This document shows positions 7,293 to 20,250 of a stretch of 64,000 nucleotides of DNA, piece after piece. How positions within the stretch are numbered: the first letter of the stretch is position 1; each line of letters starts with the position of its first letter. The translations under genes were made by a program, and so were the position numbers. The notes beneath the pieces were generated by a model. It saw nothing but the letters and a program-made list of their open reading frames with translations, made no database searches and was not told where the DNA came from. This stretch comes from an uncultured delta proteobacterium (GTDB lineage: Bacteria > Desulfobacterota > Desulfobacteria > Desulfobacterales > Desulfosalsimonadaceae): assembly GCA_963826785.1 (NCBI GenBank), contig CAWGYD010000009.1, positions 1 through 64,000 of the forward strand, given 5' to 3'.

Positions 7293-7645
7293 TGTAGGGT
7301 CATTTTCTAAATCAAATTTAAGATACTGAATAATTATATTATTTATCACAAGATGAATCTTAATTCCACAATTTTAGTATTTTGAATCCGGAATTTAGAC
7401 AAAAATTGTCAGAACCGGCCGTTTTTTGTCAACCGTATTGCGGCGGGTCAATGAAGTGGATATGATTCCTTTGAAATTTAATTGTGTACTGCTGATAAAT
7501 AATTATCATGTAACAAAATGAATATTTAATCTTTACATGGTATACGCTTGTTCCATATTTTGCTTGACCTCTTTGATCCCAAATTGATAAATTTATAAAT
7601 TTAGTTATAGGTATTAGGGATGATCTGTTTTTGTCCTTAATCATT

Positions 7646-7777
7646 GATGAACCCGTAAAAAGTCCAAAGTTCGTCACTCCGGTGAAAACCGGAGTCTATA
7701 ACCAACTTAGTTTGTAGTAGATTCCGGCCTCCGCCGGAATGACGAAAGCGTAAAATCCGACTTTTTACGGCTTCATC
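7646..7777 (+). mobile_element. 132-bp MITE-like element, copy 1
   Basis: Terminal inverted repeats GATGAA(C/G)CCGTAAAAAGTC; 6-bp direct repeat ATCATT at 7640-7645 and 7778-7783; 130/132 identical to the inverted copy at 17263-17394. Confidence 0.88.
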
Positions 7778-7828
7778 ATCATTCGTAATAAAAATTTTCT
7801 TCTTAAATAGAAAGGGGTTGGATGTATC

Positions 7829-10547
7829 ATGACCAAATATGTCTACACTTTCGGTGATGGAAAGGCCGAAGGAGACGGCGGCCAGAAAAATCTGCTGGGG
7901 GGCAAAGGTGCGGGCCTGGCGGAAATGGCGCGGATCGGACTGCCGGTGCCCGCCGGATTCACCATTACCACCGAATGCTGCATAGATTACATTAAAACAA
8001 ATGGTTATCCTTCCGGACTTAGAGAAGAAGTTCAAGGCGCGCTGAAGAAAACCGAACAGATCATGCAGATGAATTTCGGTGATCCTGAAAATCCGCTCCT
8101 GGTTTCCTGCCGGTCCGGGGCGCGAAGCTCCATGCCCGGAATGATGGAAACGGTTTTAAACGTGGGGCTGACCACCCAGACCATTCCCGGGCTGATCAAA
8201 AAGACCGGAAATGAGCGGTTCGTATGGGATGCCTATCGCCGGCTGATCCAGATGTTTTCGGACGTGGTCATGGAAAAGGCCGAGGGCATCGAGCCCGAAG
8301 ACGGCAAGGGAATCCGGGTCCAGCTCGATCACCTCATGGACCGGATGAAGGAAGAAAAGGGTTATGGCGGCGATACGGATTTTACCGCCGATGATTTTAA
8401 GATTTTAACGGAAAAATTCAAGATCCGGGTCAAGGAAGTTCTGGGAAAGGAATTTCCGGATGATCCCGAAGAACAGCTCTGGAGAGCCATCGGCGCTGTG
8501 TTTAAAAGCTGGGACGGCAAGCGCTCCGTTTCCTACCGCCGCATAGAGGGGATTCCCGATGAGTGGGGGACCGCCTGCAACGTGCAGAGCATGGTTTTCG
8601 GCAATATGGGCGATACTTCCGCCACCGGCGTTGGGTTTACCCGGAATCCGGCCACCGGCGAAAATGAATTCTACGGCGAATGGCTGCCCAATGCCCAGGG
8701 TGAAGACGTGGTCGCGGGCATCCGCACACCCAATCCATTAAATGAACACACCAAAAGCGATCACAACCAGCACCTGCCCTCCCTTGAGACCGCCATGCCG
8801 GAAGTCTATCAGGATCTGTTGCGGGTCCGGGGCATCCTGGAAAATCACAACAAGGACATGCAGGACATCGAATTCACGGTCCAGGAAGGAACGCTTTACA
8901 TGCTCCAGACCCGGGTGGGAAAACGGACCGGTCTGGCGGCACTGAATATGGCCATGGACATGCTTGCAGAAAATTTGATCGACGAGAAGACCGTGGTCAC
9001 CCGGGTCACTCCGCTGCAGCTCGATGAAATGCTCCACCCCCTTCTGGACCCCGAAGCGGAAAAACTGGCGGTTGCCATTGCCAAGGGTCTTCCCGCCGGT
9101 CCGGGAGCCGCCTGCGGGCACATTGTGTTCACCTCTGCTGATGCCGTCAAATGGTTCAGATCCGGCAAAAAAGTGATCCTGGTCCGGGAAGAAACCAATC
9201 CGGAGGATGTGGAAGGCATGCGGGCCGCAGCCGCCATTCTGACCGCCCGCGGCGGCATGACCAGCCATGCCGCGCTGGTGGCCCGGGGATGGGGCAAGTG
9301 CTGCGTGGTGGGCGCAAGCGCGCTGAAGATCGATCCCATCGAAAAGAAGCTCATGATCGAAGGCAAGGTTTACAATGAAGGGGATATCTGTACCTGCAAC
9401 GGCACCAAAGGGTTGATCTATGCCGGGGAACTGCCCATGATGGATGCCACGGAAAATCCCCGGCTGAAGGATTTCATGGCCATCGTGGACAAATACCGGA
9501 CCATGAAAGTGCGCACCAATGCAGAGACCGCCAAAGATGTGAAACTGGCCAAGGAGTTCGGCGCCCAGGGCATCGGCCTGTTTCGGACCGAGCACATGTT
9601 TTATGGCGAAGGCGCCCAGGAACCGCTGTTCCTGCTCCGGAAAATGATCTTGAGCGATTCGGAAAAGGAGCGGCGATCCGCCTCCGAGGATCTTTTCCCC
9701 TATGTGAAGCAGGATGTGAAAGAAACGCTTGCGATCATGGACGGCATGGCGGTCACTTTCCGCCTTCTGGACCCGCCCCTGCATGAATTTATTCCCCGGG
9801 GCGAGGAAAACAAGAAAAAGCTGGCCCAGGCCCTCAATATCGATGTCCACGCCATTGAAAAACGAAGCGAAGCGCTGAAAGAAAGCAACCCCATGATGGG
9901 GCACCGGGGCGTCCGCCTGGGCATCACCTATCCCGAGATTGCCGAAATGCAGATCCGGGCGATTCTCGAAGCATCCGCCGAACTCATCAAGGAAGGGAAA
10001 AAACCGATTCCGGAAATCATGGTGCCGGTCACCTGTGATGTGAAGGAACTCGACCAACATCAAGGAGATCGTGGATGCGGTTTACGGGGAAGTGATCGCC
10101 AAATTCGAACTTGCGGCCATCGATTATCGGTACGGCACCATGATCGAAATTCCAAGAGCCGCCCTGCTGGCGGATAGGATGGCCGAATGTGCAGAGTTTT
10201 TCTCCTTCGGGACCAATGACCTCACCCAGATGATGTTCGGGTTCAGCCGGGATGATATGGGCGGATTCATGCAGCATTACATGGACAAGAACATCCTGCG
10301 AAACGATCCGTTTCAAACCATCGATGTGGAGGGCGTGGGTGCATTGATCAAGGATGCGGTGGCCAAGGGAAGAAAAACCCGAAAAGACCTCAAGATCGGC
10401 ATTTGCGGCGAACACGGCGGGGACGCGGCTTCTGTCCGGTTCTGCTTTGAAAATGGGTTCAGCTACGTCAGCTGTTCCCCGTTCCGGCTGCCCATCGCCC
10501 GGCTGGCGGCGGCGCAGGCTGCCATCGAGGATGGGGGGTCTGATTAA
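7829..10547 (+). CDS. ppdK: Pyruvate, phosphate dikinase (single +1 frameshift near 10054)
   Basis: LLGGKGAGLAEM, RSGARSSMPGMM, GGMTSHAA, GIGLFRTEHM, FFSFGTNDLTQM, GICGEHGG. Removing one C at about 10054 joins ORFs 7829-10177 and 10071-10547 into about 905 aa. Confidence 0.95.
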
Positions 10548-10846: not shown

Positions 10847-10874
10847 GCACCGGCGATTCGCCGGTGCTTTTTTT
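10847..10874 (+). terminator. Rho-independent terminator between convergent ppdK and aroC
   Basis: GCACCGGCG-att-CGCCGGTGC followed by T7. Confidence 0.8.
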
Positions 10875-11934
10875 ATGCGGGGCTCTGGTTCGCCCGCTGC
10901 CTCAGCAGATGGTCAACCAGCACCAGAGATACCATGGCCTCGCACACCACATTGATGCGGGGGATGGCGGAGACGTCGTGGCGGCCTTTGATGGCGATTT
11001 TTTGAGGGTTGCCGTGCACGTCGATGCTGTTTTGCTCCAGGGCAATGGAGGGGATGGGCTTGACCGCAACCCGGATGCGGATTTCGTCCCCGTTGGAGAT
11101 CCCGGCCAGGATGCCGCCGGCATGATTGCTCAAAAACCCTTCCGGCGTGATGGGATCGTTGTTCTCCGACCCGGTCATGCCGGCGGATTCAAATCCGGCG
11201 CCGATCTCGATGCCTTTTACCGCCCCGATGCTCATCAGCCCTTTGGCCAGATCCGCGTCCAGTTTATCAAATACCGGCTCCCCCAGCCCGGCAGGAACAC
11301 CCGTGACCCGGATTTCAACGATCCCTCCGATGGAATCGCCCCGCTTTTTCACCTCGGCCACCCGGATGGCCATATCCTGAGCGGCGTCTGGATCCGGAGA
11401 ACAGAACATGTTTTCGCTGATGAGCGTTCGATCAAATGTTTTGGCAACGATTCCACCGAGAACGGCCGTATAGGCATACACGTCGATACCGGATCTTTTC
11501 AGCACTTCGCGTGCAACGGCTCCGCCAGCCACCCGTCCCACGGTTTCCCGGGCAGATGATCGGCCGCCGCCCCGCCAGTCCCGGATTCCATATTTCGCCT
11601 GATAAGTGAAATCACCGTGGCCGGGCCGGTAGATCTCCGCATAAGGCTGATACGAAGCGGAATGGGCGTCTTTGTTTTCGACCATGATCATGATGGGGGT
11701 GCCGGTGGTCTGGTTTTCAAAAACGCCGGAATAGATTCTGGCGACATCGCCTTCCCTGCGGGCGGTGCTGGCCAAAGACCCTCCGGGTTTGCGGCGGTCG
11801 AGCATGGCCTGGATGATGGTTTCATCCAGGGGGACCCGCGGCGGGCACCCGTCGATGACCACGCCTACACCCGGACCGTGGGATTCGCCCCAGGTGGTGA
11901 TCGAAAACAGTTTACCGAATGTGTTTCCGGGCAT
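10873..11934 (-). CDS. aroC: Chorismate synthase
   Basis: [26 protein letters not shown] motifs. Confidence 0.97.
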
Positions 11935-12131
11935 ATTTTTTTTTTCCTTTTTAAGCGTCCGAATTACGGTCCTTGTGCTGGTTGGGATTTGGCATACACA
12001 GGCCCTGCATCACAGGCAAATAATATTGCCGTCAGCAAGTTTTTTTATCGTCTCTTTTGCTAAAGAGGCGATATGCGCTTTAAAATCCCCACCCTCGCCC
12101 ACTTTTGCGGTTGCCTGCCCATTTCGTCTTT

Positions 12132-12537
12132 CTGGATTCCGGCTTAAAGCTTGCCGGAATGACCAATAATGACGATTGTGGTGATCGAAAATAATGAGAT
12201 TTCGGTGCGACGGAAATCCCCCCTGCCCCCCTTTGCGAAAGGGGGAAAAAAATAACGCAAAAAACCACTACTGGAGGTTATGTGGATAAGCAAAAAATGT
12301 TTTCTGGTTATCCGGAATACTCCAGTTAGAATTCCGGATTCAAAGTCCCCCTTTGGAAAAGGGGGATTTAGGGGGATTTGGCGCCTCCCGGGAGAAATCC
12401 CCCCCGCCCCCCTTTTCAAAAGGGGGGAGAAAAACGATTACTGGATTTTTCGGGATAACCAGAAAATGTTTTTTCTCGCAAAGTCGATAAGCTCAAACCT
12501 TATTGGTCATTCCGGCAAGCTTTAAGCCGGAATCCAG
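12132..12537. repeat. Nested inverted-repeat cluster (REP/REPIN-like)
   Basis: Perfect 38-bp outer IR at 12132-12169 and 12500-12537; imperfect inner IR at about 12292-12326 and 12440-12474; three CCCCCTTT..AAAGGGGG hairpin units inside. Confidence 0.85.
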
Positions 12538-12579
12538 TGCGGTCTTTGCGATCCTGGCGAGTTATTCAGATTTTTTAAG

Positions 12580-13092
12580 CTATATCTTGTCCATAATTTC
12601 CTGAACCACGGCGTCAATCGATTTGTTTTCCGTGTCTATGGCAACATCCATGGCCTGTTCATATAATGGAGTGCGCTCTTTTAAAGTTTGTGCCACTTCG
12701 TCGGCAATCTTTTTATCTGTCAGCGGCGGGCGGGTTTCCGGCGTGCGGGTGTCCGCCGCCATTCGTGCCAGGATGGTGTCCGCAGACGCTGTGAGCCAGA
12801 CAATTCTGCCGCCATTTTTTTTCATGTGCCCGATATTTTCCGGACGCAGCACGACGCCGCCGCCGGTGGCGACCACGAGATCCGTCTTTTGGCTCAACTG
12901 CAAAATAACCCGGGCCTCCTTCTCCCGAAATACCGGCCATCCAAAGGTGGAGACCAGATCCGAAATGGCCATCTTCTCCTGATTGACCAGAAAATCGTCC
13001 GCATCGATAAACTGGAGCGCCATCTTTTCTGCAAGCGCTTTGCCTACCCGGGTCTTGCCCGTGCACCGGTATCCGATCAGGTAAATGTTCAT
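12580..13092 (-). CDS. aroK: Shikimate kinase
   Basis: GYRCTGKT P-loop, DAD, FREKE, ATGGG, RPPL. Confidence 0.95.
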   Translation of the reverse strand: MNIYLIGYRCTGKTRVGKALAEKMALQFIDADDFLVNQEKMAISDLVSTFGWPVFREKEARVILQLSQKTDLVVATGGGVVLRPENIGHMKKNGGRIVWLTASADTILARMAADTRTPETRPPLTDKKIADEVAQTLKERTPLYEQAMDVAIDTENKSIDAVVQEIMDKI

Positions 13093-14366
13093 GACGCATA
13101 CAGCCCGTCAAACACTTGCCAGAACCGGGGAAAGGATTTTTCCACGCATGCCGGATTGGATATGATCATGCCCGGAATGAGGAGTCCGGCAACGGCAAAG
13201 CTCATGGCGATCCGGTGGTCGTTATAGGTTTCGATCACCGCGCCCTTTGGCTCACCGCCAGAAACGACCAGGTCCTGATCGGTGGCGGCCGCCTCAATGC
13301 CCATTTTTGTCAATTCCGCGGCCACCGCCCCCAGCCGATCGCTTTCCTTCGCCCGCAGGTGGGCCACGTTCCGGATGATGGTTTTACCCCTTGCAAAGGC
13401 GGCGATAACGGAAAGCGTTGGAACCAGGTCCGGCATATCGGCCATATCCACATCGACGCCGCACAGATCTTTCCCTCTTACGCTGATGCCATCCGGTTCG
13501 TATGCCACCGAACATCCCATCCTGGAGAGGACCTTTACGAATTTCAGATCGCCCTGCCTGGATGTTGCACTAAGCCCTCTGACTTTCACCGCCGATCCGG
13601 TAACGGCGCCTGCGGCCCAGAAATAACTTGCCTGGGAGGCGTCCGGCTCCACCTCGTACTCGCCGGGCCGGTAAGTTTGCCGGCCGGGAACATTGAAGTA
13701 TCGATATTTCTCCCTGGACAGTTCGATGCCGAACTTTTCCATGATGTCGCAGGTCATATCGATATACGGCCTGGAAACGGGCCCGTCGGTGACATGAATG
13801 GAAAGGCCGTTTTCGGTCAGGGGGGCAATCAAAAGAAGAGCGGACAGAAACTGACTGCTGATGGCGCAGTTGATGAAGACTTCTCCGCCCTTGACCGTGC
13901 CGCCGTTTACGGTGATGGGGGGGCAGCCGCTGTTTTTCGATGATACGGCAGAGATGCCGGCCTGCTGCAGGGCATCGAGCAGATCCTGAATGGGACGCTG
14001 GTGCATGCGGTCTGTCCCGGACAGCACGTAAGTGCCCTGCCCCAGCCCCGCGACCGCCGCCATCAGCCGCATGGTGGTTCCTGAATTGCCGACAAATATC
14101 GGCTCCGGCACCGGATGAAACCGGCCTCCGGTTCCGGCAATTTCGATGAAATCCTTAGTCTCCGAACTTTTAGCGCCCAGTTGATTCAGCGCGGACAGAG
14201 TGTAGCGGGTGTCCTGGGCGTCGAGCCAGTTTCGGATGCGGCTGGTTCCTTCTGCCAGGGATGCTGCGATCAGCATGCGGTGGGTATAGCTTTTCGATCC
14301 CGGGACGGAAACGATGCTGTCTTTGATCTTTTGCGGCTTGATTTCACGCATTGGCTTCATTTTCAT
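13089..14366 (-). CDS. aroA: EPSP synthase (start may be at 14351)
   Basis: PGSKSYTHR, GNSGTTMR, SSQFLS, KESDR, DHRIAM. Confidence 0.97.
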   Translation of the reverse strand: MKMKPMREIKPQKIKDSIVSVPGSKSYTHRMLIAASLAEGTSRIRNWLDAQDTRYTLSALNQLGAKSSETKDFIEIAGTGGRFHPVPEPIFVGNSGTTMRLMAAVAGLGQGTYVLSGTDRMHQRPIQDLLDALQQAGISAVSSKNSGCPPITVNGGTVKGGEVFINCAISSQFLSALLLIAPLTENGLSIHVTDGPVSRPYIDMTCDIMEKFGIELSREKYRYFNVPGRQTYRPGEYEVEPDASQASYFWAAGAVTGSAVKVRGLSATSRQGDLKFVKVLSRMGCSVAYEPDGISVRGKDLCGVDVDMADMPDLVPTLSVIAAFARGKTIIRNVAHLRAKESDRLGAVAAELTKMGIEAAATDQDLVVSGGEPKGAVIETYNDHRIAMSFAVAGLLIPGMIISNPACVEKSFPRFWQVFDGLYAS

Positions 14367-15183
14367 TTCCTGATAGTGCCTGATACACGGTCTGCTTCAT
14401 GAGATCCACCGGTGCCTTGGCCCCCGTCCAGTATTCAAACTGGACCGCCCCCTGATAGACAAACATGGATACCCCGTCCACGGTTTTGCACCCTTTTTGT
14501 TCCGCCGTTTTTAACAGCTCGGTTTTTAAAGGATTGTAAATGATATCCATCACCAGCATCTCCGGTTTCAGATAATCGGAAAGAACCGGCATTTTAAACG
14601 TGTCCGGATACATCCCCACCGGCGTGGTATTGATCAGGATGTCGCATGGGATGTCTGCCATATTTTTGAGGGGATGAAAGTTAGCATCCAGCGCAGCGGC
14701 CAGCGCTTCGCCCTTTTGAGGGGTGCGGTTGACGATGGTGAGGTGGGCGCCTTCGGATTTGATGCCGTACCCGATGGCCCGGGCTGAGCCGCCCGCACCG
14801 ATGATCACCACCTGTTTGCCCCTGATATCGACGCGTTCCGACAACGCCTTCATGGCGCCTAAACAATCGGTGTTATATCCCTTGAGCCGCCCTTCCCTGT
14901 TGATCACCGTATTGACGGCGCCGATCTTCTCGGCTGTTTCGTCAAAAAAATCGAGATATTCCATGATCGATTGCTTGTGCGGAATGGTTACGCTGACCCC
15001 GGCGATATTGAGCCCCCGGATGCCGGCAACCGCAGCCCCGATGTCGGTGACACGAAAAGCGGCATAAACCCCTGGATAACCGATCTGTTCAAATGCGTGG
15101 TTATGCATCAGCGGCCCCAGGCTGTGTCCTACGGGATTGCCGATCAAACCGTACACGCGGGTTCTGGCATCAATGCGTCGCAT
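14344..15183 (-). CDS. aroE: Shikimate dehydrogenase
   Basis: HSLGPLMHN, SVTIPHK, GAVNT, NTD, GAGGSAR, NRT, INTTPVGM. Confidence 0.95.
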   Translation of the reverse strand: MRRIDARTRVYGLIGNPVGHSLGPLMHNHAFEQIGYPGVYAAFRVTDIGAAVAGIRGLNIAGVSVTIPHKQSIMEYLDFFDETAEKIGAVNTVINREGRLKGYNTDCLGAMKALSERVDIRGKQVVIIGAGGSARAIGYGIKSEGAHLTIVNRTPQKGEALAAALDANFHPLKNMADIPCDILINTTPVGMYPDTFKMPVLSDYLKPEMLVMDIIYNPLKTELLKTAEQKGCKTVDGVSMFVYQGAVQFEYWTGAKAPVDLMKQTVYQALSGNENEANA

Positions 15184-15193
15184 GCGCTTTGCT

Positions 15194-16186
15194 CTATTTT
15201 TCCGTTATGGTTTCATCGATTTTCATGCCGAAATGCCGGCCGCTATCCTCTAAGGCCACCAGCACCTTATCTTTGGGGCGCAGGCTGATGACGGACACCG
15301 GGTTGCCATCCGGGCGGGTCAGCCGGATGGTTTCCGCGTTTTGCACAATGGTGTTGATCTCACGGTCGCCCGATATTGCCCGGACCAGCATGAGAGGCCT
15401 TTTTTCGATCTTGATCCGGCCGACGATGCCGGTGCTGGTGCGGCCCTGAAAATCGGTGATCAGCACGGCGTCTCCCGCGCGCAGTTCAGAAAGGTACCGG
15501 GTCCTGCCGTCGGGCACCCGGGTGTACGCATGCACGGGACCGGCGTTGACCCGAAACGGCCGGGGGGACACATAGGGGTTTTCGACGCTTTCGGAATGTA
15601 CCAGAAAAAGCGCGCTGCTGCTGTTGCCCACCAGGAGGCCTTCCCCGGTTTTCATTTCCGTGCAGGTGTCCACACAGACCCGGTCGCCCATGCCCACGGC
15701 CCTGATTTCGAGGATTTCGGCCGATTCAAGTGCAATCCCTTCCGTCTGCGATGCGGCAAGGGCGAGCACTTTTTTCAATTCCGGCACATTATCGGTGTGA
15801 ATCAAAATCCGGCCGACCCCCTTTTCCAGAATGCCAAACGCGGTTTGGGCCTCATCCAGGCCGCGCACCATGGCAATGACGTCCGCATTCTTGGCGATCA
15901 GGTTTTCAAGCGGAATGATCGACCAGTCGCTGCATTGGAGCACCACCTGACGGTCCTGGCACAACTTGACGATTTCGTCTTCGTCCCGGCCGCTTTGAAT
16001 GGAAAAGACGACCACGTCTTTTCCCTCCACCAGATCACCGTCATCGGATATGGTCGTAATCTGTCCGAGTTCCTTCACCTTGGCGGAATATCCGGAGGGG
16101 ACCCATACCGCATCGGCCCCGCCTTCGATGGCGGTGGTGGCCAGATCCTTGTTCCACGGGTCGATCTTCACCCATACCTTGCGCAT
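15194..16186 (-). CDS. aroB': 3-dehydroquinate synthase II (archaeal type, AroB')
   Basis: [53 protein letters not shown]. Confidence 0.93.
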
Positions 16187-16196
16187 GGTCTTCTCC

Positions 16197-16997
16197 TTAT
16201 CCGTGAAGAATTTTCAATGCGTCTTCGACAGAGGCATCATGAAAGAGAATGGCGGCCATGGCCTTGACCATCCGGGTCGGGTCTTTATGCTGGAAGACGT
16301 TTCTGCCGATGGATACGCCGGCCCCGCCGGCCTCCACCGAGCCCTTGACCATTTCGAGAATGTCCCTGTCCGAATCCATCTTGGCGCCGCCGGCGATCAC
16401 CACGGGAACCGTGCATCCTTCAACCACCTGGCGAAACGATTCCGGAGACCCGGTATAAGACACCTTGACGATGTCCGCCCCCATTTCACATCCCACCCGG
16501 GCGGCATGCTTGACCACTTCCACGTCGTATTCATCCTTGATCTTCTCGCCCCTCGGATAGACCATGGCCAGCAGGGGCACTCCCCAGTTCCGGGATTCAA
16601 AGCTGACCCGGCCGAAATCATTGAGCATCTCCTTTTCCTGGTGATCGCCGATATTCACGTGGATGGAGACGGCATCCGCACCCAGCTTGAGGGCTTCCTC
16701 CACGGAACAGACCAGGGTCTTGGAGTGCGGATACGGAGAAAGTGCAGTGGATGCGCTGAGATGGATGATCAGCCCGATATCGCCCCCCCGGCGGCGGTGG
16801 CCGGCGCCCACCAGCCCCTTGTGCTCCACAATGGCCTTGGCGCCCCCTTCGGCGACCCTGGCCACGGTTTCCTTGATATCCCGTATACCCTCGATCGGCC
16901 CGACGGATACGCCGTGATCAAGCGGCACAATAATGGTCCTGCCCGAATTGCGGTCCATGATCCGCTCCATCCGGATCTGTTTTCCCAAGATCGTCAT
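16197..16997 (-). CDS. aroA': 2-amino-3,7-dideoxy-D-threo-hept-6-ulosonate synthase (archaeal type, DhnA aldolase fold)
   Basis: [55 protein letters not shown]; adjacent to aroB'; GGAGGG RBS. Confidence 0.9.
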
Positions 16998-17072
16998 GAC
17001 GCCCTCCTGCATCTGTCCTGTTTAGTATGGATTAAAAATACGCCGATGAATTTTTTCCCCGGCGCCAGAAAC

Positions 17073-17109
17073 AAAAAAAGCCGCGGGCATCTGGTCTGCC
17101 CGCGGCTTT
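17073..17109 (-). terminator. Attenuator terminator in the aro operon leader
   Basis: Minus strand AAAGCCGCGGGCA-gaccaga-TGCCCGCGGCTTTTTTT, between the leader peptide and aroA'. Confidence 0.9.
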
Positions 17110-17133
17110 GAATCGATTTATCGAATTTTCAGG

Positions 17134-17220
17134 TTAACATCGCCCAGGCAGACCACTGCGATTATAGCAATAGCTAAAATACCAGTAATAATAAAAAAGT
17201 CTGCCGGAAAAAGAGTTCAT
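17134..17220 (-). CDS. Aromatic-rich attenuation leader peptide MNSFSGRLFYYYWYFSYCYNRSGLPGRC (28 aa)
   Basis: Translated by hand: ATG at 17220, TAA at 17136-17134; run FYYYWYF; contains an antiterminator arm complementary to the terminator 5' arm. Confidence 0.9.
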   Translation of the reverse strand: MNSFSGRLFYYYWYFSYCYNRSGLPGRC

Positions 17221-17262
17221 TTACTGCTTCTTTTTAGGATGATTTAAACAAGACTTAAACTT

Positions 17263-17394
17263 GATGAAGCCGTAAAAAGTCGGATTTTACACTTTCGTCA
17301 TTCCGGCGGAGGCCGGAATCTACTACAAACTAAGTTGGTTATAGACTCCGGTTTTCACCGGAGTGACGAACTTCGGACTTTTTACGGGTTCATC
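17263..17394 (-). mobile_element. 132-bp MITE-like element, copy 2 (inverted)
   Basis: Same TIRs; 6-bp direct repeat AAACTT at 17257-17262 and 17395-17400; two substitutions relative to copy 1. Confidence 0.88.
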
Positions 17395-17430
17395 AAACTT
17401 GATCGAATTTCACTTAAAATTTTCTGCTTG

Positions 17431-18096
17431 TCAAGTGATTATTTTTTCATGGACATTTTTCTCCACGAGATTTGCCGCATTTTTCTGCATGAGCAAAAAG
17501 TCATCTTCATCCAGGCCGGCGCCCATGGCAATGATCCGGGCGGTGTCGATATCGATGAGATCGCCGGGGGAATGGGAGTCGGTGTCGAGCACCAGACGGG
17601 CGCCAGTCTGCCGGGCCAGTCTGGCCACATGCCCGTTGGTCAGGCTGTGCCCTTTGCGCGCCGTGATTTCAAGCAGGACGCCCCGATCCCGGGCCGCGAT
17701 GGCATCGCTTTCCGAAATGAGTCCGGGATGCGCCAGGATGTCGACGCCGGCCTCGATCGCCGCGCGGTTGGTGCCCTTGGCCACGGGTTCCGCCACGGTT
17801 TCACCATGCCCGATCACCAGGCGGGCGCCAAGCTTCCGGGCTTTTTCCACCACACTGCCGAAAAGGACCGGCGGTACATGGGTGATTTCGATTCCGGCAA
17901 TGATCCGGATGGCCATCACGGCATTCAACATACGGGCGGCTTCGACGATCCGGGGAATCACCAGGTCGATGTTGGACATATCGCCGTGATCGGTCATTCC
18001 GATGATGGCAATCCCCCGGTGTTCGGCCCGCCGGGCGAGTTCCGAGGGGATGAGTTCTCCGTCGCTGAACAGGGTATGGGTGTGAAGATCGATCAT
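17431..18096 (-). CDS. PHP-domain phosphoesterase (histidinol-phosphatase-like)
   Basis: DLHTHTLFSDG, TDH, AHPG, DTDSH metal-binding motifs. Confidence 0.85.
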   Translation of the reverse strand: MIDLHTHTLFSDGELIPSELARRAEHRGIAIIGMTDHGDMSNIDLVIPRIVEAARMLNAVMAIRIIAGIEITHVPPVLFGSVVEKARKLGARLVIGHGETVAEPVAKGTNRAAIEAGVDILAHPGLISESDAIAARDRGVLLEITARKGHSLTNGHVARLARQTGARLVLDTDSHSPGDLIDIDTARIIAMGAGLDEDDFLLMQKNAANLVEKNVHEKIIT

Positions 18097-18117
18097 CGTG
18101 TGTGTCCCTATGGAAAA

Positions 18118-18615
18118 TTACACCTTGTATTTGCCGAAATCCTCGGGGGAGAGCTTCTTCAGGTACTCCTCCCATTTCTTGCCCTGATCGCTTTCGTCTG
18201 CGCTTTCATATTCGCCGTCTTTGACCTTCAGGTTTTCCACCACCACATCATCCACGAAAATAGATGCGTTGAGGCGAAGGGCCAGGGCGATGGCATCACT
18301 GGGCCGGGAATCGAGTATGAATTCCTCCTCATCCGAAGAGCAGTAGATCTTGGCGAAAAAGGTGTTTTCCTTCAGATCGCAGACCTCGATCCGGCTGACC
18401 GTGATGTTGACCCGATCGATGAAATTTTTGAACAGATCATGGGTCATGGGCCGTTCGAAATCGATATTCTGGAGTACAGAGGCGATTGAAGCCGCTTCCA
18501 GAAGTCCGATCCAGATGGGAACGGAAAATTCCTCATCCTCGGAATTGAGAATCAGAATCGGGGCGTTTGACGACGGATCCATGGCCAGTCCGCCGATTTT
18601 CATTTTATGCAACAT
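18118..18615 (-). CDS. Bifunctional nuclease family (DUF151) protein
   Basis: VPIWIGLLEA, RPMTHDL, DSRPSDAIALA; start re-set to MLHKM. Confidence 0.88.
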   Translation of the reverse strand: MLHKMKIGGLAMDPSSNAPILILNSEDEEFSVPIWIGLLEAASIASVLQNIDFERPMTHDLFKNFIDRVNITVSRIEVCDLKENTFFAKIYCSSDEEEFILDSRPSDAIALALRLNASIFVDDVVVENLKVKDGEYESADESDQGKKWEEYLKKLSPEDFGKYKV

Positions 18616-20017
18616 GATATTTTCCCCCTGTTGTTTCGCAAGTTTCCCCTTCGGGATGCGTCGGTGTTCCCCACAGGGAATTTCGATAGACTTTTTCGAT
18701 TTTGACCGCAACTGTTTTGCCGATCAGATCGGACAGGCCCGCTTCGTTGATATCGAACTCAAAATTGACAATCCGGTTTTCGGGTGTACGGCCGGTGAGT
18801 TCCTTGCAGGTCAAAGACGGCCGGATACCATTTTTCAGCTGCTTTTTGCTTTCGCCTTCGATCAGCACCGGGCAGATGCGGCCGATAAGCGCCGCATGTT
18901 TTTGGCGGCCGATCCGCTCCTGCAGATCGAGTATAGCCTGCAGCCGCTCCTGCTTGATCCGATCTTCGATCTTGTTGTTAAAATGCGCGGCGGGCGCATT
19001 GGGACGATCCGAATAGGCAAACGCATAAATGCTGTCGAAGCCGACCGCTTCCATCAACGCAAGGGTTTGCTCGAAATCGGCATCCGTTTCACCGGGGAAA
19101 CCCACGATCAGGTCGGTGGTGATGGCAATCTCCGGAGAGACCCGCCGCAGCCGGGCCACTTTTTCAAGATAGGCCTCCCGGGTGTATCGGCGGTTCATCG
19201 CTTCTAAAATACGGTTGGCGCCGGACTGCACCGGGAGATGAATGTGGTTGCACAGCTTTTCCAGCCGGCAAAAAGAAGCGATCAGTTCATCGGATAAATC
19301 CTTGGGGTGAGAGGTCACAAACCGGATCCGCTCCAGACCCGGCACGCCATCGACCATTTCCAGAAGCTGAGCAAAAGAGACCAGCCCTTCTTTGGTGCCA
19401 TAGCTGTTCACATTCTGGCCCAGCAGGGTGATCTCCTTGACGCCCCGGCGGCAAAGCCGGGTGATCTCGTTTAAAATGGATTCGGGTTCGCGGCTGGCTT
19501 CCCGTCCCCGCACATAGGGGACAATGCAGTATGCGCAGAAATTGTCGCATCCCCGCATGATGGTGACAAATGCGGACAGTCCGGCAGGGGCGCAGCTGTC
19601 GGGATGAGCATCTTCCATGCACGCGGTCATATCCGTCTGCACGATGGGTCCATGTTCGGTTTCCAGCAGATCGAGCATCTCCGGCAGTCGATTGACGGCA
19701 TGCGTCCCCAAAACAATATCCACATGGGGAAACCGTTCAATCAGGCCTTGTTTTTCCTGCTGGGCCACGCACCCTGCCACCACCACCCGCAGGCTCGGAT
19801 TGCGCTGTTTAAGTTTATGCAGACGTCCGATGAAGCTGTGGACCTTCTGGACGGCCTTTTCACGGATGGCACAGGTGTTGACGATCACCAGGTCCGCCCT
19901 GGAAAGCACGGTGGTGTTCTGATACTGCCGGTCTGCCAGCAGGTCCAGCATGCGGCCGGAATCATAGACATTCATCTGGCAGCCGATGGTCTGGATATAA
20001 ACGTTTTTCGAATTCAT
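18605..20017 (-). CDS. miaB: tRNA ms2i6A37 methylthiotransferase
   Basis: TIGCQMNVYDS, NTCAIREKA, GCDNFCAYCIVPYVRGRE, IVGFPGET, C-terminal TRAM domain. Confidence 0.95.
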   Translation of the reverse strand: MNSKNVYIQTIGCQMNVYDSGRMLDLLADRQYQNTTVLSRADLVIVNTCAIREKAVQKVHSFIGRLHKLKQRNPSLRVVVAGCVAQQEKQGLIERFPHVDIVLGTHAVNRLPEMLDLLETEHGPIVQTDMTACMEDAHPDSCAPAGLSAFVTIMRGCDNFCAYCIVPYVRGREASREPESILNEITRLCRRGVKEITLLGQNVNSYGTKEGLVSFAQLLEMVDGVPGLERIRFVTSHPKDLSDELIASFCRLEKLCNHIHLPVQSGANRILEAMNRRYTREAYLEKVARLRRVSPEIAITTDLIVGFPGETDADFEQTLALMEAVGFDSIYAFAYSDRPNAPAAHFNNKIEDRIKQERLQAILDLQERIGRQKHAALIGRICPVLIEGESKKQLKNGIRPSLTCKELTGRTPENRIVNFEFDINEAGLSDLIGKTVAVKIEKVYRNSLWGTPTHPEGETCETTGGKYHVA

Positions 20018-20250
20018 ACGCTCAATAATTGACGGTCCGAAGACATGGGTTGGATGGGAAAACTTTTGCGCAGGTCCGACAATACAAACTCCACATCGGC
20101 CTCGCATCCCGGCGCGATATGCAGCGCAATGACGGTTTCATGGGGGTCGATGGTTTCCAGCACCGCGATGCCGTCGTATGCCTCGAAAATAAACTTGATG
20201 AAATAAACGGCGCTTCGATCCACATGAAACAGCCTCCGGGAGGTTTTCAA
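20014..20250 (-). CDS. Small conserved protein (DUF4911-like)
   Basis: FIKFIFEAYDGIAVLETID motif; overlaps the miaB start. Confidence 0.7.
   Translation of the reverse strand: MKTSRRLFHVDRSAVYFIKFIFEAYDGIAVLETIDPHETVIALHIAPGCEADVEFVLSDLRKSFPIQPMSSDRQLLSV

Follow-up and report, generated by a model that had tools for sequence, protein, structure and literature searches.

A conserved aromatic-codon leader, likely a ribosome-mediated attenuator, precedes the aroA'-aroB' shikimate operon in Desulfobacterota

In attenuators of the pheL and trpL kind the helices of the leader transcript are numbered 1:2, 2:3 and 3:4; the his operon attenuator comprises six segments, with only the last hairpin acting as a terminator, and the thrL leader carries Thr and Ile codons. 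The original prediction for the locus described here assumed that classical leaders of this type sense one amino acid, which does not hold generally, since thrL, ilvB and aroR all carry codons for several. The relevant passages of PMC10272879 describe Ile, Leu and Val codons in ilvB leaders, and in those of PMC11802643 and PMC4046766 the Corynebacterium glutamicum aroR leader, which precedes aroF, reads Phe-Tyr-Phe, and only Phe limitation acted despite the Tyr codon. Thus, as far as the description in PMC11802643 goes, sensing cannot be read off from the codons present. For the Desulfovibrio vulgaris operon aroA'-aroB'-pheA-aroF-tyrA-trp, a putative upstream attenuator is given by Song et al. 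(2005; PMC1173090, Table 7; Merino database), and a possible pheL is mentioned for Desulfobacterium autotrophicum in a passage of PMC3082878.

Whether the present element had been described before was left open by the original prediction; judging from that table entry, an attenuator at this operon was partly anticipated in print, for D. vulgaris in 2005. For the leader peptide and the two-terminator relay discussed below, no description was found in the literature searched, and possibly relevant surveys lay outside that search. A term search of the main text of PMC4833913 and PMC2965389 gave none, nor did the portions covered of PMC5764234, PMC3766115, PMC9413887, PMC3223726 and PMC2659441.

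We herein describe a leader found in the window, i.e., the whole 64,000-nucleotide stretch of Desulfobacterota DNA that was analysed. We are fairly confident that it is a ribosome-mediated transcription attenuator of aroA'-aroB'-aroE-aroA-aroK(-aroC), and predict that it responds above all when charged Tyr- and Phe-tRNA run short, and probably when Trp-tRNA does. The element is real and well conserved, and it very probably functions as an attenuator.

Layout of the leader and its operon

The leader lies on the minus strand, directly ahead of aroA' (Table 1). Translation of its uORF bore out the 28 codons that had been predicted, with 3 Phe, 6 Tyr and 1 Trp, seven of them in a row (FYYYWYF, codons 9-15). 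The GC hairpin with its U7 tract also stood, as it is called by the terminator scan (hairpin 17109-17077, U7 at 17079-17073) and appears in the MFE fold of the leader, which has a z-score of -4.84, with none of 200 shuffles as stable. The mutually exclusive antiterminator, in which UGGUCUGCCUG (17155-17145) pairs with CGGGCAGACCA (17102-17092), comprises the expected 11 bp, including one G-U, and can lengthen by 3 bp to a total of 14 bp. With both conformers folded, helices 2:3 and 3:4 reach -25.3 and -26.2 kcal/mol, respectively. Three features lie beyond those originally noted, namely the protector helix 1:2, a second hairpin (17065-17040) followed by U5, and a repeat insert (17394-17263). 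The second hairpin is weak and is absent from the terminator-scan calls; helices 5:6 and 4:5 amount here to -11.8 and -10.9 kcal/mol, and the combination 2:3+4:5 (-36.2) offers no gain over 2:3+5:6 (-37.1). By these folding energies the relay is weak in this genome, hairpin 2 being degenerate and 4:5 having no energetic edge over 5:6.

Table 1. Coordinates of the leader elements, neighbouring features and operon genes in the window
Feature	Position	Strand	Basis or remark
Leader peptide uORF	17134..17220	-	28 codons; kept in homologues
Control codons: FYYYWYF (17196-17176), Tyr17 and Tyr19	17164..17196	-	
Segment 1, protector arm, partner of segment 2	17199..17207	-	Fold and alignment
Segment 2, partner of either 1 or 3	17142..17155	-	Alignment; helix 2:3 -25.3 kcal/mol here
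Segment 3, terminator 1 5' arm and loop, antiterminator partner	17092..17109	-	Terminator call and pairing
Segment 4 and U7 tract, terminator 1 3' arm, able to pair with segment 5	17073..17089	-	3:4 -26.2 kcal/mol
Second hairpin (segments 5 and 6, 17065-17040), AU5 tail	17034..17065	-	MFE fold; degenerate copy of family terminator 2
Candidate sigma70 promoter: TTGACA 17434-17429, poor -10 at 17411-17406	17406..17434	-	Sequence
MITE/REP-like palindromic repeat (17394-17263), flanked by 6-nt direct repeats	17257..17400	.	Insert, outside conserved attenuator
aroA' (2-amino-3,7-dideoxy-D-threo-hept-6-ulosonate synthase)	16197..16997	-	TIGR01949 366 bits, cut-off 299
aroB' (3-dehydroquinate synthase II)	15194..16186	-	NF002627 480 bits, cut-off 392
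aroE (shikimate dehydrogenase)	14344..15183	-	TIGR00507 above cut-off
aroA (EPSP synthase)	13089..14366	-	TIGR01356 above cut-off
Shikimate kinase (AroK/L-like)	12580..13092	-	NF002988 149.9 bits, below 161 cut-off
aroC (chorismate synthase)	10873..11934	-	TIGR00033 above cut-off

The candidate promoter was missed by the promoter scan. Between it and the uORF lies the repeat, whose terminal inverted arms (17261-17284 and 17373-17396) give, counting both arms, 87 BLAST match lines in the genome; once the 138-nt insert is removed, the promoter-to-start distance is 76 nt, within the normal range for the family. Since the -10 element is poor and a repeat is inserted upstream of the uORF, the expression of this particular copy is uncertain. 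MITE/REP-like palindromes are abundant in the intergenic DNA of the window (17263-17394, 7644-7778 and 11935-12579). The gap between aroK and aroC consists here of 645 nt of repeats; in relatives the two genes adjoin, and from this adjacency we infer that aroC is co-transcribed with aroK.

Directly upstream, in the same direction, lie miaB, a gene with a bifunctional-nuclease domain (BFN) and a PHP gene (17431-20107, minus strand). MiaB modifies tRNAs that read U-starting codons. Because miaB is found upstream in only 22 of the 53 loci with enough DNA, all of them closer relatives, a link of miaB to the element was rejected. Elsewhere in the window, a pyruvate phosphate dikinase gene (7829-10547, plus strand) seems split by a frameshift near 10070-10177 into 782 and 158 aa, possibly an assembly error.

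Of the 64,843 ATG ORFs with 10-40 codons in this genome, no other has as long an aromatic run as these seven codons, and of 2,794 stretches of 500 nt upstream of long ORFs just one contains a uORF in which 7 or more of 10 codons are aromatic. Terminator-like sites, at 3 found against 2.2 expected, are not unusual alone. A genome scan for tandem terminators was noisy, missing known cases, and was kept out of the evidence.

Conservation and alternative helices among relatives

The 110 aroA' loci sampled, of which 94 are distinct, yielded 91 orthologues with at least 68% identity; 6 had too little upstream DNA, leaving 85, the window included, with at least 300 nt upstream. The best AroA' relatives belong mostly to Desulfobacterales/Desulfobacteraceae. 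A uORF with at least 5 aromatics in 10 codons precedes aroA' in all 85; at a threshold of at least 7, it is found in 82/85 on the sense strand, in 5/85 on the antisense strand and in 2/425 dinucleotide resamples. These counts are not independent events, since the genomes are kin. In a sample of the phylum, AroA' is matched at E 1e-60 in 59 of 201 genomes. When 58 further loci (two partial AroA' matches being left out) were read individually, 39 had an aromatic-rich uORF, in 38 cases with a hairpin directly upstream of aroA' and in one, a rearranged operon (L266), before aroK, which is now the first gene. Of the 19 loci lacking the leader, 2 have less than 170 nt upstream, and the others include operon-internal copies and distant paralogues. 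Moreover, the element occurs in none of 10 aroA' paralogues (54-58% identity) from Desulfobacterales genomes; at one of them (L171) a Phe-rich ORF of 51 codons is present, and inspection by eye shows no GC hairpin.

A wider set of 122 leaders was compiled after L052, the proximal ORF of L127, and L166 had been dropped as non-members; L052 is still counted within the 85 (uORF counts, alignment and pairing statistics). A TTGAC promoter-like motif lies at most 130 nt from the start codon in 64/122, and 81/122 have an SD-like word. L052 belongs to a Candidatus Falkowbacteria record: its aroA' is 76% identical, an atypical aromatic uORF stands 500 nt upstream, the helices are atypical and no aroB' follows. 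It may represent a transfer or mis-binning.

Alignment of the 85 leaders resolved six segments that can pair in two ways. In state A (1:2+3:4+5:6) 89.0% of the cells are paired, with 165 double-change cells, and in state B (2:3+4:5) 90.6%, with 41; none of 500 shuffles matches the paired and double-change-cell values of either state, and slid controls give 32-54%, with the reservation that both states were drawn from the same sequences used to score them. Helix 1:2 is paired in 78.2% of cells with double changes at 6 of 9 pairs, 2:3 in 88.5% (6 of 10), 3:4 in 93.6% (8 of 12) and 4:5 in 92.2% (4 of 7 core pairs). The number of state B pairs with double changes is not clearly above chance, as 31 of the 500 shuffles reach it. 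The uORF kept in relatives and the compensatory changes in the helices thus lend support to the trpL/pheL-type architecture that had been proposed ahead of aroA'-aroB'.

In most homologues the second hairpin is strong. It lies at most 25 nt away in 98 of 125 candidates, and in 65 of these 98 both hairpins are U-tailed. The 4:5 duplex averages -17.6 kcal/mol, against -8.1 with a shuffled segment 5, and 91/98 two-hairpin leaders beat this shuffle null by more than 4 kcal/mol. At the family level, then, 4:5 is an alternative to both 3:4 and 5:6, i.e., a six-segment relay of the his type. Some lineages have hairpin 1 only (L004, L030, L108 and L118); in others (e.g., L115, L122, L123, L125 and L128) hairpin 1 has no U tail and hairpin 2 is the sole terminator, an arrangement that makes sense only if 4:5 is in use.

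Control codons and competing readings

The position of the control codons is tightly constrained. In 65 of the 75 leaders with a matched segment 2 core (of 85), the last aromatic codon ends 8 nt before that core, and the other two frames contain stops in 48 and 63 of the 85 leaders. When the leader was folded with a ribosome footprint, assumed to be 10 nt, removed, helix 2:3 formed for A-sites at codons 9-19 and was lost from codon 22, so that in this model a stall on the control codons frees segment 2.

On this basis we infer leader translation, termination and the starvation that opens the leader, as follows. With charged tRNAs plentiful, the ribosome would pass segment 2 and reach the stop, 3:4 (and in most relatives also 5:6) would form, and transcription would end near 17073. 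A stall at the aromatic codons would keep the ribosome over segment 1, with segment 2 free to form 2:3; the freed segment 4 would then pair with 5, disarming the second hairpin, and the operon would be transcribed. Without translation, 1:2 would form, making termination the default. Such a leader may follow an OR logic, in which any one of three starved tRNAs could stall the ribosome, with a weight set by codon number and position. A uORF rich in end-product codons, a predicted and conserved terminator before the first gene, and the mutual exclusion of 2:3 and 1:2 are all found here, as expected of an attenuator.

Possibly, the same attenuator is effectively a one-amino-acid sensor (for Tyr here, for Phe in Phe-richer relatives), with the remaining aromatic codons tolerated as U-rich filler that keeps the region unstructured; we regard this as a minority reading, doubtful though with some real chance of being right. 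It narrows the reading favoured above and contradicts the originally proposed sensing of all three end products. The aroR precedent, in which Phe acts and Tyr does not, speaks for it, as do the absence of Trp codons from 32/122 leaders, the strong use of UUU (286/318) and UAU (336/420), against about 48% and 50% in the long ORFs of the genome, and the presence of separate Phe- and Trp-rich leaders in the same genome. On the other hand, Phe occurs in 122/122 leaders, at least two Tyr in 120 and all three aromatics in 90; similar leaders of the phylum use near-pure Phe or Trp runs, so the F/Y/W mixture before the pathway-entry genes looks selected; and the Trp codon sits mid-run, where, by folding, stalling frees segment 2. 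The proposal that one leader integrates all three end products therefore stands in part: the codons for all three are present, whereas Trp has a single codon in the window leader and separate leaders of its own, and the Tyr codon of aroR is silent. Since Trp is a single codon, missing from those 32 leaders, and has its own leaders, Tyr/Phe sensing by the attenuator appears the safer reading, and Trp sensing is plausible from codon content.

Two further explanations do without tRNA sensing, and we consider both highly improbable. The uORF could encode a functional small peptide, or a TnaC-like arrest peptide sensing free amino acid in the ribosome tunnel, with the hairpins just ending its transcript. 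A GLP motif recurs near the C-terminus and the length is held at about 22-31 codons, as such a peptide would predict; however, GLP is segment 2 translated, and 21/107 matched leaders read segment 2 in a different frame. There are 102 distinct aromatic cores among the 122 leaders, helix 2:3 is conserved, and the peptide together with four to five homologous ones has no real match in Pfam or NCBIfam. The free order of the aromatics and the variable frame of segment 2 indicate that codon class and RNA pairing are kept rather than a peptide. Alternatively, the ORF could be incidental in U-rich DNA, and the hairpins could either terminate the miaB-BFN-PHP transcript constitutively or belong to an RNA switch under the control of a protein or ligand. 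The upstream genes are indeed co-directional, and the Rfam trpB motif (RF04312), reported from Firmicutes and Fusobacteria in the part of PMC11109978 concerned, matches weakly over the region (29.8 bits, below the gathering score of 59). Against this stand the presence of miaB upstream in 22/53 loci versus the uORF in 85/85, the frame-specific openness, the chance controls, the position of the hairpins downstream of a conserved promoter-like motif, and the finding that in 20 loci no T-box or riboswitch reaches its gathering score.

Related leaders and comparison with described systems

It had been proposed that the pathway is entered through AroA'/AroB' instead of DAHP synthase, which the genome contradicts: it also encodes two DAHP-synthase-family genes and AroB, with Phe- and Trp-rich leaders of their own, as well as a probable KdsA (contig C10). 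One of the two DAHP-synthase-family genes is a DAHP synthase-prephenate dehydratase (PDT) fusion on C5, and the second DAHP synthase adjoins aroB on C3; a type II dehydroquinase is encoded on C10, and no match to a type I dehydroquinase was found in the genome, which is 88% complete. The fusion is preceded by a Phe-rich leader with a TTG start, an antiterminator and two terminators (L276, C5:200377-200192, minus strand), and in 10 of 11 fusion loci the leader contains 5-9 Phe and no more than one Tyr; the remaining locus was too short. A Trp leader (WW and one W) and a terminator precede the second DAHP synthase (aroF) and aroB (C3:213328-213170, minus strand). Ahead of trpE there are three consecutive Trp codons and two U-tailed hairpins (L275, C5:294876-294680, minus strand), with a repeat-flanked insertion of ~600 nt between the hairpins and trpE. 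A short Phe-ending uORF with two hairpins precedes a phenylacetate-CoA ligase-like gene (L277, C1:754267-754043, minus strand; L319 and L321 are similar), hinting that PaaK-like ligases with Phe leaders serve Phe supply. Upstream of an ilvD-like gene, a terminator and a Leu/Val/Ile-rich stretch (L278, C5:114825-114622, minus strand) make up a candidate branched-chain attenuator. F/Y-rich leaders (L298, L302, L304, L320, L340, L341 and L346) precede a PLP aminotransferase (PRK06836 family in the three annotated cases), which suggests that the lineages concerned use it as the aromatic aminotransferase.

When this genome is scored with a covariance model derived from the 85 leaders, the trpE and fusion leaders come second and third and the Phe leader of the PaaK-like ligase fourth; the model has matches in 78/151 phylum genomes. 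For 55 of the matches the uORF and the next ORF were read, 30 of the latter being annotated. Leaders with mixed F/Y/W, or in some cases Trp runs, precede DAHP synthases; F/Y leaders precede PLP aminotransferases, F leaders precede PaaK-like ligases, and Trp runs stand before anthranilate synthase and before a TrpB-like enzyme. Unrelated targets (leuA and ilvD) are few. The agreement of codon content with target, as in the Trp runs before trpE and the TrpB-like gene and the Phe runs before the fusions, counts in favour of the attenuator reading. These matches may share architecture rather than descent.

Codon usage in the aroA' leader may also follow operon content. The Phe share is 0.47 with pheA in the operon (35 loci) versus 0.32 without it (27), and 0.45 versus 0.31 on 100 rows. 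Among the 50 of 62 classified genomes covered by frame counts, 27 have operons without pheA, with PDT in a frame of 629-694 aa in 23, standalone in 2, truncated in 1 and in 1 not found; none of the 23 with pheA in the aroA' operon has a frame longer than 405 aa. On quick trees, 4 and 5 independent pairs were available, with 2.3 and 2.9 in the expected direction and 0.0 against, which is not significant; hence, such codon tuning is a lead.

We tentatively speculate, at somewhat less than even chances, that aromatic synthesis in Desulfobacterota is served by a modular cassette of attenuation. A single decision by the ribosome would pass through two serial terminators, and the codons would be retuned for each target: three-way Tyr/Phe/Trp at pathway entry, Phe before DAHP synthase-PDT fusions and Trp before trp genes, with a lower share of Phe in the aroA' leader once pheA has left the operon. 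If this were true, the one-, two- and last-terminator-only forms would mark out a route between attenuators of the trp type and those of the his type. The attenuator proposed here would add a signal to what was only listed for D. vulgaris in 2005, and it offers a specific mechanism, open to test, for the control of aromatic synthesis in a large phylum made up of sulfate reducers and syntrophs, the regulation of which is little charted. Two terminators coupled by a relay would lend themselves to a switch with little leak and to a small reporter of aromatic amino acids. No new principle is involved, since the mechanism is textbook; what is gained is a further family and its design.

The RNA family is absent from the databases searched (Rfam, Pfam and NCBIfam). 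In the window leader, His_leader (22.1 bits, gathering 49) and Leu_leader (22.4, gathering 50) score below threshold, and Trp_leader, Phe_leader and Thr_leader give no match at E up to 10; none of these families is matched at gathering score in 20 loci. Like the E. coli and Salmonella pheL-pheA and trpL-trpE leaders, within what PMC1183508 sets out of the general model, ours combines a cognate-codon uORF, alternative helices and a U-tailed terminator. The numbering 1:2, 2:3 and 3:4 applies to both. Those leaders, however, serve a single amino acid and branch-specific operons, and no Rfam match links them to the present one. With the his attenuator the family shares three hairpins in the terminating state and a two-helix read-through relay; unlike his, both hairpins are U-tailed in 65 of the 98 two-hairpin leaders, and some lineages keep only the first or the second. 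As in ilvBN, ilvGMEDA and thr, codons for more than one end product of a common pathway are combined in a single leader, although there these are branched-chain or Thr/Ile codons, and we know of no second terminator in those leaders. The D. vulgaris attenuator (PMC1173090) was likewise predicted at the head of a sulfate-reducer aroA'-aroB' operon, but as a terminator/antiterminator prediction; the word "leader" is absent from the main text of that paper, which names neither a peptide nor a signal, a family or a relay. Our leader (F2 Y3 W2) is present at a locus (L150/L246) whose genes stand in the same order. Compared by the published description, a further likeness is to C. glutamicum aroR-aroF, where mixed Phe/Tyr codons also precede a shikimate-pathway entry enzyme; whereas aroR, as described in those passages, has Phe-Tyr-Phe and responds to Phe alone, the leaders reported here have 7-10 aromatic codons including Trp, precede AroA'/AroB' and possess a second terminator.
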